The translations under genes and the position numbers were made by a program. The notes under the pieces are model-generated. The model searched no databases. It was not told where the DNA came from and worked only from the letters and a program-made list of their open reading frames with translations. Of a stretch of 64,000 bases of DNA, positions 2,462 to 50,504 are shown piece by piece; position 1 is the stretch's first letter, and the number at the start of each line of letters is the position of its first letter. Source of the DNA: an uncultured Candidatus Saccharibacteria bacterium (GTDB lineage: Bacteria; Patescibacteriota; Doudnabacteria; UBA920); contig CAYQEU010000001.1 of the NCBI GenBank assembly GCA_964416765.1, positions 130,541-194,540 on the forward strand, in the 5' to 3' direction.

Positions 2462-2692
2462 ATGCGAGATAATCGTGCGTTTGTTTTGGTTGTTGGTCTG
2501 CTCTTAACCTTTATGGTAGGTGCCACTCGGGTACAATCCTACGTTAACGGCATAGAGCATATCAAAGGCGGGGGAGCGATCCATACTTTTAAGATGGACC
2601 GTTTTTACCTGCGTAAATTCACCGGAAACCTTATTAGTTATTGGATGAATACCAAATATAACCCTTCGGATGACGAAGAAGGGTGGGTGTAA
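2462..2692 (+). CDS. hypothetical small secreted/membrane-anchored protein
   Basis: 76 aa; N-terminal signal/TM segment; no SD; no known motif. Confidence 0.3.
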   Translation: MRDNRAFVLVVGLLLTFMVGATRVQSYVNGIEHIKGGGAIHTFKMDRFYLRKFTGNLISYWMNTKYNPSDDEEGWV

Positions 2693-2756
2693 TATTCCAT
2701 TATTTTGTGCGTTATGTTATAGTCGTAGTGAAATACGACATAATTAAGCCAAATTT

Positions 2757-3803
2757 ATGAAAACAACCAAAGTTTTAGGCTTTTTGGTCCTAATCAGCCT
2801 TTTTATGGGCTTTTCTGGGGGTTCGAAAGCGAGTGCGGACGTAGTTGCCGGGCTAGTACTCAACGGAGTAAGTCCTTCCTCAGGACCCATCAGCTCCACT
2901 ATTACCCTAAATGGGTCAGGCTTCTCCACCATGAACATCAATACGATGTACGGTGGCGGAGTTTGGTTTACTGACGGCACATATTCTGCCAACCTGTACA
3001 GTTCTCTCAAAGTCATAAATGACAATGTCGCTACCGTGGTAGTGCCAAACAGTCTCTGTTATGGAGTGGAAGGAAACTGTAACACCGAGCATTACAGTAT
3101 TCAGCCGTTCGGTGAGTATTCCATTTATATCAAATCAAACATCGGCAATGTGGGAGTACAAACCACCGCTAGCGTAAAGTTCACCGTAATTGCGTCGCCG
3201 ACCACCAGTTCCCATCCGGTTGGCAGTACCGTGCGTGGTTCAGATGGCACCGTGTACTTCATCAGTACCGGCAATACACGCAGCCCATATACTTCTTCGG
3301 GCGCATTCCTATCATACAAGTTCAACAACTGGGCCAACTTGCAGACCGCCAACAGCGCTGACATGGATTTGCCTTTGACCAGCTACTTTGACGGTAATCA
3401 TTATTACACTTACTTCATTCCGCCGCGCAACGGCTCGTTGATTAATGACCACGGCACAGTATATCTGATTACCAATGGCCAGCGTGCCGGTTTCACTTCG
3501 GCTAACGTCTTCCTTGAAGGCGGTTACTCTTTCGGGAATGTGTATGCCGGTGACACCTCGTTCATGACTACACTGAGTCCGATCAAATCTTCAGCGATGG
3601 CCCACAGCGAGGGGACACTAATTAATGATAACGGCACCATGTACGTCATTAAGGGCGGTTCCCGCCTTGGCTTCCCATCCATGAGTGTTCTCGAGTCTTG
3701 GGGATTCTGGGTGCAGGACGCGGTTCCAGCCAACGGCTATGACCGCAATATCCCAGTCGGCGGCGTTATTCAAACCAGGCAAGCCGACCAGATCAACATT
3801 TAA
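2757..3803 (+). CDS. secreted protein with three tandem ~60-aa repeats
   Basis: Signal peptide (MKTTKVLGFLVLISLFMGFSGGSKASA); repeated blocks GTVY(F/L)I(S/T)(T/N)G..R..(Y/F)(T/P)S...(F/V)L. Confidence 0.6.
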   Translation: MKTTKVLGFLVLISLFMGFSGGSKASADVVAGLVLNGVSPSSGPISSTITLNGSGFSTMNINTMYGGGVWFTDGTYSANLYSSLKVINDNVATVVVPNSLCYGVEGNCNTEHYSIQPFGEYSIYIKSNIGNVGVQTTASVKFTVIASPTTSSHPVGSTVRGSDGTVYFISTGNTRSPYTSSGAFLSYKFNNWANLQTANSADMDLPLTSYFDGNHYYTYFIPPRNGSLINDHGTVYLITNGQRAGFTSANVFLEGGYSFGNVYAGDTSFMTTLSPIKSSAMAHSEGTLINDNGTMYVIKGGSRLGFPSMSVLESWGFWVQDAVPANGYDRNIPVGGVIQTRQADQINI

Positions 3804-3858: not shown

Positions 3859-5701
3859 AGGAACGTTTGTCTCGTTTGCGGTCGGTGGCCGACAGCAGCC
3901 GCTTTCTAATACGGATACTTTGCGGGGTAACCTCAGCCAGTTCATCAGGTCCAATGTATTCCAGGGCAAAGTCCAGTGTAATTTCTTTTGGCGGAGTGAG
4001 GATGAGCGCGTCGTCAGCACCGGAAGAACGCATGTTGGTAAGCTTCTTGGTTTTGCAAACATTAACTTCAAGGTCCATATCCAGCGAATTCTTGCCCACT
4101 ACCATTCCTTCGTAAACATCGACGGCTGGGCCAATGAACATGACACCGCGTTCCTGGGCGTTATTCAGGCCATAGGCGTTGGAGGTGCCGCTTTCAGAAG
4201 CGATAATGGAGCCGTGTTCGTTGCCGCGCAGGTCAATTTCGTGTACGGGCTTGTAGGAATCAAACAGGTTGTTGATGATGGCGGTACCGCGGGTACGGGT
4301 AAGGAGCAGGTTCTTTAACCCAATCAAACCGCGGGTCGGAATAAGGTATTCCACGTGCAGTTCCCCCGAAGCGTCGGATTCCATGTGCTGCATGTCCCCG
4401 CCGCGGCGGCCTACTTCTTCAATAACGACGCCCTGGTGTTCGCCTGGGACATCAATGGTCAGGATTTCATATGGTTCCATTTTCTGGCCGTTTTCCTCGT
4501 GGAAGATAACCTGGGGCTGGGATACCTGGAGTTCAAACCCCTCACGGCGCATGGTTTCTATTAACACGCCGAGGTGGAGCTCTCCGCGTCCGGATACGAG
4601 GAATGAGTCGCCAGTGGCTTCTTCCACTTTGAGCGCCACGTTGGTTTCCAGTTCTTTAAACAAGCGGTCGCGGATGTTGCGGGAGGTTACCAATTTGCCT
4701 TCACGGCCCGCGAATGGGGAAGTGTTTACCCCGAAAGTCATTTTAATGGTGGGCTGCTCGATTTCAACCGGCGGAATTTGAATGGGGTTGTTGGAATCAG
4801 TGATGGTGTCGCCAATCTGCACGTCATCAAAACCGGCCAAAGCGACAATGTCTCCGGCAGTGGCTTCATCGTACTCAGTTGGGACCAAACCGCGGTACAT
4901 TTGTAGGGAAGAAATTTTGCCGGCGGTTTGCTTTCCGTCGCGGTCGATCTTAACAACGGCTTGCGCTTTCTTAACGCTGCCAGAGGTAATTTTACCGATA
5001 CCGATTTTGCCTTTGTAATTGTCAGAGCGCAAGGCGAGAATGAGTACCGCAAACGGGTCTTCCGGAGAAACTTCCGGCGCGGGGATGTGTTCAATTATCG
5101 CGTCAAAAATGGGAGTAATATTAGCCTTGTCGTTCGGTAGTTCAGCGCCTGATTTAAGCGCGGTCAAAACTTCATCCAGGTTAGTGGAGGCAACACCCTT
5201 AACACCGCTTGCGTAGATAATGGGGAAGTCGAGCTGGGTTTCGGTGGCATGGAGGGAGACAAACAAATCGAAAGTCTTGTTTACTACTTCATCAACTTGG
5301 GCGTCCGGTTTGTCTACTTTGTTGATTACGACAATTGCGCGGTGGCCGAGCTCCAGCGCTTTTTTTAGCACGAACTTGGTTTGGGGCATGGGGCCTTCTT
5401 TGGCGTCCACCAAAAGAAGCACGCCGTCAGCCATTTTCAGGGTGCGTTCAACTTCGCCGCCGAAATCAGCGTGGCCTGGGGTATCGACAATGTTGATATG
5501 GAAGTCTTTGTAATCAATGGAGGCGTTCTTGGCGGTAATGGTAATGCCGCGCTCACGTTCCAAGTCGCCGGAGTCCATAATCAAATCGCCGCCATCGTTT
5601 TTGACGGTGTCGGTCTGTTTGAGCATGGCGTCTACTAAGGTAGTTTTGCCGTGGTCAACGTGGGCGATAATGGCAACGTTGCGGAGGTTGTCTCGTTTCA
5701 T
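3857..5701 (-). CDS. typA: translational GTPase TypA/BipA
   Basis: 614 aa; G1 motif [18 protein letters not shown]; EF-G-like domain order without domain IV. Confidence 0.9.
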   Translation of the reverse strand: MKRDNLRNVAIIAHVDHGKTTLVDAMLKQTDTVKNDGGDLIMDSGDLERERGITITAKNASIDYKDFHINIVDTPGHADFGGEVERTLKMADGVLLLVDAKEGPMPQTKFVLKKALELGHRAIVVINKVDKPDAQVDEVVNKTFDLFVSLHATETQLDFPIIYASGVKGVASTNLDEVLTALKSGAELPNDKANITPIFDAIIEHIPAPEVSPEDPFAVLILALRSDNYKGKIGIGKITSGSVKKAQAVVKIDRDGKQTAGKISSLQMYRGLVPTEYDEATAGDIVALAGFDDVQIGDTITDSNNPIQIPPVEIEQPTIKMTFGVNTSPFAGREGKLVTSRNIRDRLFKELETNVALKVEEATGDSFLVSGRGELHLGVLIETMRREGFELQVSQPQVIFHEENGQKMEPYEILTIDVPGEHQGVVIEEVGRRGGDMQHMESDASGELHVEYLIPTRGLIGLKNLLLTRTRGTAIINNLFDSYKPVHEIDLRGNEHGSIIASESGTSNAYGLNNAQERGVMFIGPAVDVYEGMVVGKNSLDMDLEVNVCKTKKLTNMRSSGADDALILTPPKEITLDFALEYIGPDELAEVTPQSIRIRKRLLSATDRKRDKRS

Positions 5702-48438: not shown

Positions 48439-49782
48439 ATGAAAAATTTGGGCCACAAAATTAAATCCGAATTAACAGAACGGCTTTCGAAGATTTCGAT
48501 TGCCGCGCTTCCTAAATTTGCCCAGGCACCGGCCGTGGAAGTGTTTGATACTGTAGTTCCGAATGTGCGCAATAATTTCCGGCCCCACGCCCTTCGCCAC
48601 CGCTCTTTGGCGTTAATCAGTTTCCTGTTGGTAACAGTTAAAGTGGTAACAATCGGGGTCATTACTTTTGGGCCGGTGCTACCGGCATTGTCATCCGCCA
48701 TTACCCCGGCTAACGTTATTGCCCTCACTAACCAGTCACGCAGCGGTAGTGGAATTGCTTCTGTTACTGAAAACTCGAAACTCGATGCCGCGGCGCAAAC
48801 CAAAGCCAATGACATGCTTAGCAAGCAATACTTCGCCCATGTCACCCCGGAAGGAAAACAACCGTGGGATTTCATTACCGCCCAAGGATATTCCTACCAG
48901 GGAGCGGGGGAAAACCTGGCGGTAGGTTTTTTCCAAGCCGAAGGGGTGGAAGACGCGTGGATGAACTCGCCGGAACACCGGTCCAACATTTTGAACTCTT
49001 CATTTAAGGAAATTGGGATTGGGATTGCGAGCGGGACTTTTCAGGGACAGCAGGCTACCATAGTGGTGCAGATGTTTGGCACTCCGTTGGCTGGTACTCC
49101 TCCTCCCAAACCAAAAACCACCCCGGCCGCCCCAAAACCAGCTCCAAAACCGGCGCCGGCCCCGAAGCCGGCACCTACCCCTAAGCCCGCACCGACACCG
49201 AAACCGGTTACTCCTGCCCCAAAACCGGTGACTCCTCAAGTGGTAAAAGCCGCGACCAGTCCTGAGCCGTTGGCCCCCGCGCCTTCGATTCCGGCCGAAG
49301 GAGTTTCGATTGATAAGGAAAAAGTTAACGTTACCGTGGAGACCAGCGAACCGGCCGACAAAGTCACCGCGTTTTTCGGCAACCTCTACGAGGAGTTGCA
49401 GCCCAACCCCAACAGCCATACTTCCTGGAGCGCGGAAATTCCGGTTAAAGATTTGACCGAAGGAAAATATCTCAATGTACAAACCGAAAAGCAGGGGACT
49501 ACCCCCCACACCGAGCGGCTGGCTGTGTTCACGTCAGGATTCAAAAATAACTACGATTTAACTGCCGCGCCCGAACCAAAGCTTATTTCAATCTTCGGTA
49601 TAGTTATAAACCCCCAATTGCTGCAAAACCAGTTCTATCTGCTGATGATAGCGTTGCTTCTGTCGCTCCTGGTTGTGGCGCTCTGCGTGCGGGTTCGTAT
49701 CCAGCATTTGGAGCTGATTTCCAACACGGCTTTTGTGGTCACTTTAGCCACTCTGCTCTGGTATTCCGGCCTGCAATTTTGA
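48439..49782 (+). CDS. CAP (SCP/PR-1-like) domain protein with Pro/Lys-rich linker and C-terminal TM anchor
   Basis: CAP motifs (HYTQ-like FAHVTPEG, GENLA, WMNSPEHR.NIL); PAPKP repeats; C-terminal hydrophobic helix. Confidence 0.7.
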   Translation: MKNLGHKIKSELTERLSKISIAALPKFAQAPAVEVFDTVVPNVRNNFRPHALRHRSLALISFLLVTVKVVTIGVITFGPVLPALSSAITPANVIALTNQSRSGSGIASVTENSKLDAAAQTKANDMLSKQYFAHVTPEGKQPWDFITAQGYSYQGAGENLAVGFFQAEGVEDAWMNSPEHRSNILNSSFKEIGIGIASGTFQGQQATIVVQMFGTPLAGTPPPKPKTTPAAPKPAPKPAPAPKPAPTPKPAPTPKPVTPAPKPVTPQVVKAATSPEPLAPAPSIPAEGVSIDKEKVNVTVETSEPADKVTAFFGNLYEELQPNPNSHTSWSAEIPVKDLTEGKYLNVQTEKQGTTPHTERLAVFTSGFKNNYDLTAAPEPKLISIFGIVINPQLLQNQFYLLMIALLLSLLVVALCVRVRIQHLELISNTAFVVTLATLLWYSGLQF

Positions 49783-49810
49783 GCTGGCTTTAACTTGAGG
49801 CAGTAATGAA

Positions 49811-49840
49811 AGCGCTCCTTATGGAGCGCTTATTTTTTTA
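49811..49840. terminator. intrinsic terminator (AGCGCTCC-ttat-GGAGCGCT + TATTTTTTT)
   Basis: 8-bp GC-rich stem with T-tract on + strand and A-run on the other side. Confidence 0.75.
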
Positions 49841-49936
49841 CGAACTCAAGAAATGTGAGAGCAAGGATTAAGGCCGCCATTTGGGCTATGATGACATAAC
49901 CGATGACGCGGTCTTTTAGGTGGGAGTTATTCATGG
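49838..49936 (-). CDS. possible 32-aa hydrophobic peptide (MNNSHLKDRVIGYVIIAQMAALILALTFLEFV)
   Basis: ATG..TAA ORF below track threshold; single TM-like helix; no SD; sits directly downstream (minus strand) of the structured region. Confidence 0.15.
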
Positions 49937-50105
49937 GGTAGGAAGGTCTGGGGGAAGCACAAAGCCCCCCGCCAGCGGCAACTTTCGTTGCCCACTATCC
50001 CTTTCGAGATAGGACCTTCCTAGGGCTCTGGACGGAGAGCTTAATACTAGGAAGGTTTTAACCATGCCCGGGTCGTTAAGACACGCGGGTTTAGGTCTTA
50101 AATTG
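49936..50105. ncRNA. candidate structured RNA element (cloverleaf-like 4-way junction plus downstream hairpins); identity unknown
   Basis: 10-bp closing stem TAGGAAGGTC/GACCTTCCTA enclosing three hairpins (GGGGG/CCCCC, GGCAAC/GTTGCC with UUUC loop, CTATC/GATAG); second copy of TAGGAAGGT downstream allows alternative pairing; inside a 475-bp convergent gap. Confidence 0.3.
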
Positions 50106-50206
50106 TAAAGATAGTATAGCTAATTTAAGCGCGCTTTGCTATATGGGTATGATAGTATTCGGAGCATCAAATAAAATTAAAAAATTTCTAAAATGAAGAT
50201 AAAACA

Positions 50207-50241
50207 GCGGCAGGAATCTTGAAGGAATCCTGCCGCAGCTG
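50207..50241 (-). terminator. intrinsic terminator of csp
   Basis: GCGGCAGG.../...CCTGCCGC hairpin followed on minus strand by T-rich tract. Confidence 0.6.
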
Positions 50242-50258
50242 CAAACAGTTGTAGATGG

Positions 50259-50504
50259 CTAATGGTGGATGAGCGTGACGTCAACGGCTTTGTAGCCGTT
50301 GCCTTGAGCGTTGGTTGCCAACCGACACTTTATCTGTGAGCCTCCGCTAACGGCTCGAGCTTCCTTGGGGTTACGGAAATCTCCGCGGAAAATGAATACG
50401 TCGCCCAATCCGGCGAACAGACCGAAGCCGTAGCCCTTCTGTTGTCCGAACCATTTAATCGTTCCGTTTGCTATTTTTCCCTCGCGTTCCAATTTTCTTG
50501 CCAT
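50259..50504 (-). CDS. cold-shock domain (CspA-like) protein
   Basis: 81 aa; GTIKWFGQQKGYGFG...DVFIF pattern of CSD RNP1/RNP2 motifs. Confidence 0.7.
   Translation of the reverse strand: MARKLEREGKIANGTIKWFGQQKGYGFGLFAGLGDVFIFRGDFRNPKEARAVSGGSQIKCRLATNAQGNGYKAVDVTLIHH

Follow-up and report, generated by a model that had tools for sequence, protein, structure and literature searches.

The 64-kb window analysed here, 64,000 nucleotides of contig CAYQEU010000001.1 from an uncultured Candidatus Saccharibacteria bacterium (GTDB lineage Doudnabacteria), holds a 476-bp gap in which an RNA of the LOOT family (Rfam RF03000) is followed on the minus strand by a gene for a 34-aa membrane protein. The gap separates two convergent genes, a CAP-domain gene (plus strand, 48439-49782) and csp (minus strand, 50504-50259), and runs between their stops at 49782 and 50259, as the original prediction from this DNA had described. 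Read along the minus strand, it contains in order a -10 box, a start motif, the LOOT RNA, a 3' tail with a U-tract, the 34-aa gene (49934→49833, stop 49832-49830) and a terminator, so that no part of it is empty. We give an even chance to the view that these features form a single minus-strand transcription unit, with a predicted promoter and predicted sites of termination.

The Rfam covariance model of LOOT matches the minus strand at 50097→49977 over its full length (model positions 1-121 of 121), at 70.5 bits where the gathering score is 46.4, and with E = 3e-13 for the gap (cmscan). An Rfam scan of the whole window reported seven tRNAs and one other RNA, which is LOOT, and in the gap no riboswitch model matched. 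The structured RNA that the original prediction had expected in the gap is therefore a member of LOOT, and it carries all the testable defining features of the family, namely the P1 hairpin with its CCUAAAC/GCAUGG loop, a long central hairpin topped by an apical one, and, on the 3' side, two hairpins with tetraloops. The same prediction had named a confident match to a known Rfam family as the result that would count against it, and this is the result obtained. The unconstrained minimum free energy fold of the segment 50097→49977 is identical to the fold of the model (-49.5 kcal/mol, z = -5.8); folding energies, here and below, ignore pseudoknots and tertiary contacts.

Within the LOOT core (49977-50097), P1 occupies 50060-50097 (GACCUAAACCC...GGGCAUGGUU), and its internal loop CCUAAAC/GCAUGG is conserved in the Rfam consensus. 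A hairpin noted earlier at 50077-50100 is indeed present, as a part of P1 and not as a separate element. In P2, the 5' strand ACCUUCCUAG (50047-50056) pairs with the 3' strand CUAGGAAGGU (50014-50023), and the helix encloses the apical hairpin H (GCUCU-CCGUCC-AGAGC, 50025-50040). P3 (49995-50012) and P4 (49977-49992) both end in GAAA loops, and the pairs of both covary.

The original prediction had placed the RNA on the plus strand, as a tRNA-like four-way junction at 49939-50022. The plus-strand segment does fold well, into a 10-bp stem around three hairpins (-38.8 kcal/mol, z = -4.6), and to this extent the observation stands. The cloverleaf is, however, the mirror image of an alternative fold of the LOOT transcript, and combines the complements of P3 and P4 with a third hairpin inside a closing stem in which the P2 3' strand, common to both alternative stems, pairs with a copy of the P2 5' strand at 49939-49948. 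The pairing of 50047-50056 with 50014-50023, proposed there as the alternative, is real and is the P2 conserved in the family, whereas the closing stem lacks conservation in the family and represents the alternative. The covariance match, the GNRA loops, the receptor-like motif, the U-tract, the promoter and the ORF (open reading frame) all belong to the minus strand, where the family fold at 50097→49977 continues into a tail reaching ~49955. ARAGORN found no tRNA or tmRNA in 49700-50350, and no tRNA or tmRNA covariance model matched this region even at E ≤ 10. We attach virtually no probability to a functional cloverleaf on the plus strand.

LOOT, said to stand for 'lots of tetraloops', was reportedly identified in environmental sequence for which no host had been classified, and a role in trans was guessed for it. 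Rfam types it as 'Gene; sRNA'. The motif comes from a comparative-genomics survey, in the published article of which its description is left to the supplement (Weinberg et al. 2017, PMC5737381). Full-text literature searches, which reach article text and not that supplement, found LOOT only in passing in PMC7657543, where a CaCoFold note on cross-covariations mentions it, and nothing on its function. As far as checked, neither a leader-like anatomy nor a host range in the candidate phyla radiation (CPR) is described for LOOT in the searchable literature.

For the family, a degenerate pattern of the P1 hairpin gave 107 stretches in one-genome-per-species contigs and 35 in IMG/VR. A covariance model, 3' extension included, was built from 66 of the pattern-found LOOTs, and the 93 LOOTs scoring at least 59 bits with it in the collected loci are the basis of the family counts given below. 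The E-values of this extended model are rough, and Rfam's own model agreed with it in spot checks. Record titles assign nearly all hosts to Patescibacteria/CPR, among them Saccharibacteria, Microgenomates groups, Parcubacteria groups, Doudnabacteria, Berkelbacteria and Komeilibacteria.

The Rfam model ends at P4, whereas the window and 92 other loci continue into a covarying tail, a U-tract and a further hairpin; the promoter and start motif upstream and the co-oriented ORF downstream likewise lie outside the model. In the window the tail CUGGCGGGGGGCUU and then the U-tract UUUGUGCUU occupy 49955-49975. The consensus of the tail, GCUGGCGGnGaGCUUUUUGU, is complementary to the region of the apical hairpin inside P2, and the resulting helix T has its 5' strand at 50028-50042 in the window, overlapping H. 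When T was tested on a sequence-only MAFFT alignment of the 66 LOOTs, RNAalifold chose it unaided; its 11 core pairs are formed in 91.8% of cells, and nine of them are changed on both sides (one pair, for example, is CG in 26, GC in 16, AU in 12, UG in 6 and UA in 4). Pairing falls to 37-48% when the partner strand is slid by 1-3 columns, and the duplexes average -22.9 kcal/mol for cognate strands versus -13.2 for non-cognate ones. Directly followed by the U-tract, T resembles a terminator and is predicted to act as one.

The helices P2 and H are conserved as well. P2 measures 10-12 bp in 79 of the 93 loci, with 87 distinct 5' strands, and a compensatory change is seen between CCUUCGUAG/CUACGAAGG in the related locus L143 and CCUUCCUAG/CUAGGAAGG in the window. 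RNAalifold did not recover P2, which MAFFT could not align, and P2 and H were analysed sequence by sequence. H has 47 distinct stem types, with a mean z of -2.5 versus shuffled sequences, and is weaker than T (-5.9 vs -22.9 kcal/mol). Since H and T share nucleotides, the two cannot coexist at full length; and since both covary or are conserved on these same nucleotides, two alternative structures are under selection, unless T forms in its loop-tail part only, as a pseudoknot. The family thus has what a leader would have, two conserved and mutually exclusive structures of which one, T with its U-tract, is a predicted terminator.

In most loci the U-tract is followed by a sequence complementary to the tail, and the two form hairpin D. 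In the window D spans 49948-49975, pairing the tail with the segment right after the U-tract, and corresponds to the first hairpin of the cloverleaf (49951-49971). Paired with the next 40 nt, the tail gives -13.3 kcal/mol in cognate combinations against -8.6 for shuffled and -10.7 for non-cognate ones. The stems of D vary by locus (GUGGC/GCCAC, CAUGUGGU/ACCACAUG, GGGGAG/CUCCCC), and D is conserved in the clade of the window. Since it is conserved although it lies beyond the U-tract, one can argue for selection on the read-through RNA. The strength of the -10 box and the high stability of T, followed by its U-tract, would also suit a stand-alone small RNA (sRNA) that works in trans or has a structural or protein-binding role; it would be transcribed from a promoter of its own, and T would be its constitutive intrinsic terminator. 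The ORF would then be reached by leak-through or be incidental, and the duplicated P2 strand would be non-regulatory. Such an RNA gives no reason for the conservation of D past its terminator, nor for that of H, the competitor of T.

The loops point to a compact fold. The P3 loop is GAAA in 92 of the 93 LOOTs, and that of P4 is GNRA or UUCG across the family. The 11-nt GAAA-tetraloop receptor has the consensus CCUAAG/UAUGG (PMC2615604, PMC11381326), and CCUAAAC/GCAUGG in P1 equals this consensus with its G.U replaced by A.C; the receptor class is defined by CC:GG pairs on either side of a UAA/A(U) internal loop, which a wobble pair closes, and by a GAAA loop as partner. The P1 loop is conserved also in L028, L043, L127 and L143, whose LOOTs stand outside the selection by the search pattern. 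Docking of the P3 GAAA loop into the receptor-like loop of P1 is probable on this comparison. Conservation of both tetraloop and receptor is also a trait of stable RNAs, and fits an sRNA as well as a leader. A variant receptor loop, CCUAAC/GCACGG, occurs in L144:5611-5762(-), L145:4646-4813(-) and L149:172-340(+), and the LOOT of L144, under the Rfam gathering score, was found at 66 bits by the extended model with helix T.

Upstream of LOOT, the sigma-70-type -10 box TATACT (50113-50118, minus strand) was read from the sequence and is identical in the seven related contigs L143-L149, with promoter activity predicted. The start motif TACAATTTAA (50098-50107, minus strand; family consensus ACAATTTAAT) follows it, and transcription is predicted to start at ~50106. 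A conserved start motif, ACAAUUUAAU, stands 9-16 nt before P1 in most loci, and a TAnnnT-type box precedes it by 6-7 nt in 45 of the 52 LOOT loci that have the motif. The sequence ACA[AG][UC]U is found at most 50 nt upstream of LOOT in 68 of the 93 loci, as compared with 5.3% of background windows, and ACAAYUNAA in 46 of the 93, as compared with 0.56%. Given the spacing to the -10 box, the motif would begin at about the expected transcription start. The consensus ACAATTTAAT, ~7 nt after the -10 box, is itself -10-like (nACAAT, TTTAAT) and recalls sigma-dependent promoter-proximal pause elements, presumably of the kind present at lambda PR'. No pairing partner was found for the start motif, beyond 4 bp to UUGU of the U-tract seen by eye.

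The gene that follows LOOT in the window encodes a single-helix membrane protein (MNNSHLKDRVIGYVIIAQMAALILALTFLEFVKK) and lacks a Shine-Dalgarno sequence. The original prediction was right in calling the ORF hydrophobic, minus-strand and devoid of a Shine-Dalgarno sequence; its extent is to be corrected from 32 aa at 49936→49838 to 34 aa at 49934→49833. The protein has no Pfam match, and an exact look-up gave no record. Homologues of the CAP protein point to a CPR lineage resembling Doudnabacteria; those with 64-71% identity led to the syntenic contigs L143, L144 and L145, and L146-L149 were reached through a DNA pattern search and a profile built on the small protein; a metagenome scan for close relatives gave only one contig. 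All seven contigs have LOOT at the same place and a homologue of the small ORF after it, 34 aa long in the window, L146, L147 and L148 and 55-66 aa long in L143, L144, L145 and L149. The homologues share the core K/R-D-R-x-I-x-x-(I/V)-I-(I/V)-A-Q-(M/L) and show synonymous differences. Because homologues with this conserved core follow LOOT in seven contigs, the 34-aa ORF is, judged by its conservation, a real gene, and the earlier candidate is upheld.

Two other frames at this place were rejected as genes. The AUG within GCAUGG of LOOT opens a 44-aa frame through the RNA (window 49931-50065(-)), which is not open in other loci. In L147:1501-1737 and L148:1064-1300 this frame and the small ORF are joined by a 1-nt indel, and the resulting fusion is called as the 78-aa P0125; an 89-aa product of L144 is called likewise from the GCAUGG frame. 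Both products are annotation artefacts. An upstream ORF or leader peptide starting from a GUG in the U-tract, the UGA of which overlaps the AUG of the gene in the window, is not conserved as a coding sequence; in L146-L148, owing to a 1-nt indel, it shares the reading frame of the small gene.

That a small ORF for a hydrophobic single helix, with no Shine-Dalgarno sequence, adjoins a structured RNA had also suggested a type I toxin-antitoxin-like module, in which the peptide would be a membrane toxin restrained by the small RNA. The locus differs from such modules in that LOOT lies upstream of the ORF on the same strand and not antisense to it, the sole complementarity being an intramolecular 10-mer. 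Moreover, other LOOTs precede proteins of many families and of up to several hundred residues, and the peptide itself has homologues of 55-66 aa. We consider this module highly improbable, and that part of the original prediction is not supported.

The arrangement in the window recurs across the family. Among ORFs of at least 60 aa, the nearest one downstream lies on the LOOT strand in 48 loci and on the opposite strand in 5 (91% co-oriented), whereas the nearest one upstream is on the same strand in 22 loci and on the opposite one in 32 (41%). The distance from tail to ATG has a median of ~37 nt, which is too short for a separate promoter, and in the window the AUG comes 20 nt after the U-tract. 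LOOT is thus found in the 5' untranslated region (UTR) of a co-oriented gene in 48 of the 53 cases, a position that a stand-alone sRNA would not lead one to expect. A transmembrane-like segment is present in the first 70 aa of 42 of 64 downstream products, against 27% of background ORFs. Their Pfam matches include Zn-ribbon, SHOCT, DUF4352, TM2, DUF4190, RDD, DUF805 and PG_binding, and this heterogeneity is more easily understood if the RNA acts on its own.

LOOT is sometimes multi-copy. At least two genomes carry more than one LOOT (2-3 copies), MGKT01 having two, and contig WARV01000011.1 has three within ~10 kb (L091:1612-1789 and 1988-2147, both plus strand, and L040:772-937). The tandem LOOTs of L091 differ in H/T subtype, and the ORFs of 58-77 aa that follow them, one after each, are paralogous. 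Both the retention of LOOT-ORF modules by paralogues and the multiple copies in some genomes speak against an sRNA with an incidental neighbour. The paralogous products of L091 are small cytoplasmic proteins, MPKFKIDFWFDQEP.. and MPKYKIDIWFDQKP... In L064, three tandem repeats ~900 bp apart (888-975, 1786-1873 and 2684-2776, plus strand) precede a complete LOOT at 3861-4023; each repeat keeps only the P1 hairpin of LOOT, together with an A-run and a strand like the 5' one of P2, and leads directly into an ORF (..AAUAUGAAACUCAAAAG..).

A second possible competition lies at the start codon. Three occurrences of the 9-mer TAGGAAGGT or its complement were counted over the 64 kb of the window, as compared with 0.39 expected, and all of them lie in the gap. 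The third, GACCUUCCUA (49939-49948, minus strand), repeats the P2 5' strand and ends 4 nt before the AUG of the 34-aa gene. It is invariant in L146-L148 although the flanks and the ORF differ, and at the same position L149, L144 and L143 have an interrupted version, whose duplex with the P2 3' strand is worth -12.9, -13.2 and -10.0 kcal/mol, respectively. The duplex of the window copy with the P2 3' strand reaches -17.1 kcal/mol, the non-cognate mean being -4.75 (sd 2.8). Equally strong cognate copies, with unrelated P2 sequences, are found in L021, L110, L083 and L026, each at or within a few nt of an AUG, and duplexes of -14 kcal/mol or lower are formed by 4 of 80 cognate pairs versus 0.44% of non-cognate ones. 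The switch-like duplication of a stem strand seen in the original prediction hence has comparative support in these loci and in L146-L148, its closing stem being no feature of the family at large. Enrichment of the copy at the AUG is difficult to reconcile with a stand-alone sRNA, to which its absence from most loci is well suited.

Energies of the longer transcripts suggest how the two competitions might be connected. An RNA that begins at the predicted start and stops at the U-tract has the T fold as its nested minimum free energy structure (-60.3 kcal/mol). In the read-through RNA, the LOOT fold with D reaches -72.2 kcal/mol, the cloverleaf, in which the P2 3' strand pairs with the copy around P3, P4 and D, -69.2, and the T fold -60.3. 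From these values, D would convert the T form back to the LOOT form, and the LOOT and cloverleaf forms are near isoenergetic.

We propose that, as the RNA is transcribed, P1 would form with its receptor-like loop, followed by a one-turn P2 capped by H, by P3, whose GAAA loop would dock into P1, and by P4. The emerging tail would then pair with the loop of H and invade this hairpin, giving the long helix T right before the U-tract, where most transcripts would end as an RNA of ~150 nt. Polymerases that read through would make the tail complement, and D could pull the tail off T and restore the LOOT fold. In the read-through mRNA, the P2 3' strand would be contested between the P2 5' strand and its 10-nt copy, located 4 nt ahead of the AUG; should the copy prevail, as in the cloverleaf, the start region of the ORF, which has no Shine-Dalgarno sequence, would be buried, and if the LOOT fold holds it would be free. 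A ligand, a protein, an ion or temperature might tip the balance. LOOT would accordingly be a two-level leader in cis, governing both termination and translation of a small membrane-protein gene through a predicted promoter, predicted termination and probable docking. This reading draws on what was observed, namely membership in the family, the helices with their covariation, the order of the genes, the conservation of the ORF and the enrichment of the copy, and we put its chances at about half.

Several points weigh against this leader. Rfam's typing of the family as an sRNA gene is one of them, and T is so stable that the terminated RNA may predominate and be what actually exerts the effect. 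It could also be that P2 and T coexist as a pseudoknot, with T then part of one native fold. A strong copy of the P2 strand near the AUG is seen only in ~5% of loci, L145, within the clade of the window, is essentially without it (-5.7 kcal/mol), and the general complementarity between start regions and LOOT over all loci is marginal (p = 0.04); start-codon occlusion is therefore treated as a feature of a subset of loci. The Pfam scan of the downstream proteins revealed no unifying family and, beyond their being mostly small membrane or secreted proteins, no common function, and such heterogeneous genes are unlike a classical riboswitch regulon. In a few cases a gene on the opposite strand faces LOOT, a reverse transcriptase (RT) in L069 and L029. 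The search pattern fixes the P1 motif, ORFs were called mechanically, and several LOOT contigs come from possibly mis-binned metagenome-assembled genomes (MAGs). Weighing both sides, we accord the stand-alone sRNA an appreciable probability, though one clearly short of even.

A more general form of the leader reading can be offered tentatively. LOOT, instead of being a trans-acting sRNA, may be a widespread and sometimes multi-copy cis leader of CPR bacteria, a new terminator-type switch and possibly a riboswitch, which would gate small envelope proteins; we are rather doubtful of this generalisation. With similar reserve, we suggest that an aptamer fold, with H formed and the tetraloop docked, could compete with T as a long-range terminator nucleated from the loop. 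It is conceivable too, at no greater strength, that in some lineages, including that of the window, a second competition is added in which the P2-strand copy occludes the start codon. The riboswitch-like character supposed in the original prediction accordingly remains alive as regards the 5' UTR position and the alternatives H and T, while no riboswitch model matches.

Some LOOT contigs are assigned to MAGs outside the CPR: L003 and L038 (Bathyarchaeia), L006, L048, L062, L067 and L087 (Gammaproteobacteria/Pseudomonadales), L031 (Sediminibacterium) and L032 (Sulfotelmatobacter). Because their LOOT sequences are typical of those of the CPR, these contigs are probably mis-binned.

An association with RTs was also considered, in which LOOT would belong to a mobile element as template, primer or partner of a group-II-intron-like RT, the copy in the window being an orphan. 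A shorter LOOT-like RNA adjoins the 3' end of a group-II-like RT gene, convergently, at nine loci (the RT was classified by PADLOC/NCBIfam for one protein). True LOOTs adjoin the same RT family in L069:2997-3155(-) and L029:7590-7745(+), where they are convergent with the RT and next to its 3' end, and in L110:5478-5654(-), an IMG/VR contig, the RT, a 137-nt gap, LOOT and a 352-aa gene follow one another on one strand. These 3 are the only ones among the 93 true LOOTs to adjoin an RT. The window, on the other hand, has no RT by tblastn over its 64 kb and has housekeeping genes as neighbours, and the syntenic conservation of the locus in eight related contigs is not that of a mobile element. 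We judge the RT-associated origin very unlikely.

The shorter RNA was seen in L028:1249-1369(+), L043:4713-4835(-), L073:2413-2533(-), L127:461-579(+), L049, L077, L086, L092, L098, L101 and L142. It consists of a CCUAAAC/GCAUGG hairpin followed by a helix whose 3' strand overlaps a terminator, it has neither P3 nor P4, and it matches no Rfam family at the gathering score. It is accompanied by a true LOOT, 3-4 kb away and on the same strand, in L028, L043 and L127. Near-identical copies of the shorter RNA across several MAGs and IMG/VR contigs suggest that it is part of a mobile element, a point in favour of the RT association. The contig of L110 also has DNA methylases and an AAA/VWA pair.

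Among known systems, the closest to LOOT in its way of working would be riboswitches of the terminator type whose aptamer has a tetraloop receptor, such as c-di-GMP-I (GEMM-I). LOOT and these riboswitches stand in a 5' leader and have a compact fold, with a probable contact of GAAA and an 11-nt receptor in LOOT; in both, the 5' strand of the terminator, a predicted one in LOOT, overlaps a conserved helix of the aptamer or aptamer-like fold, and the downstream genes are varied, many of them encoding envelope proteins. LOOT differs in that it matches no riboswitch model and has few conserved unpaired nucleotides, its terminator 'loop' holds two whole hairpins, and an extra hairpin follows the U-tract. 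The analogy thus concerns mode of action, and membership in the class, which would call for a ligand or a shared regulon, cannot be claimed. The predicted order of promoter, abundant short structured RNA, leaky terminator and protein gene(s) is also that of type III toxin-antitoxin systems (ToxIN-like) and of lambda PR'-6S-tR'. Unlike these, LOOT loci have no tandem-repeat antitoxin, ToxN-like endoribonuclease or identified Q-like antiterminator, and their downstream proteins are mutually unrelated.

Terminators flank the gap on both sides, in agreement with the original prediction. The hairpin at 49810-49831, with a 9-bp stem and a T-run on the plus strand, is common to the CAP-domain gene (plus) and the small ORF (minus), and its U-tract is weak when it is read on the minus strand. 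On the side of csp, a 9-bp GC hairpin followed by UGUUUUAUCUU (50236→50207, minus strand) separates csp from the LOOT promoter. With 20 bits, the csp product (50259-50504, minus strand) stays under the Pfam cut-off of 27 bits for the cold-shock domain (CSD) and represents a divergent member of the CSD proteins. The 81-aa gene has syntenic counterparts in L147 and L148, and L143 has a gene of 82 aa at the corresponding position. The housekeeping neighbours in the window are parB, mazG, csp, rpmB and a gene for an M50 protease.

For annotation, these results mean that a 476-bp 'gap' is fully occupied, that it contains a 34-aa gene missed by gene callers, and that the AUG in GCAUGG of LOOT leads such programs to spurious fused proteins, of which the 78-aa P0125 is an example. 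For the family, a catalogued orphan RNA is met in a new context and gains a host group, the genome-reduced Patescibacteria, in which few regulators are known. It gains as well the anatomy of a transcription unit, with a predicted promoter, a 5' motif, a covarying helix that may double as a terminator and a post-terminator hairpin, and a consistent partner in small membrane or secreted protein genes. What had been listed as an sRNA of unknown role may thus become a concrete hypothesis of how termination and translation could be controlled in these bacteria.

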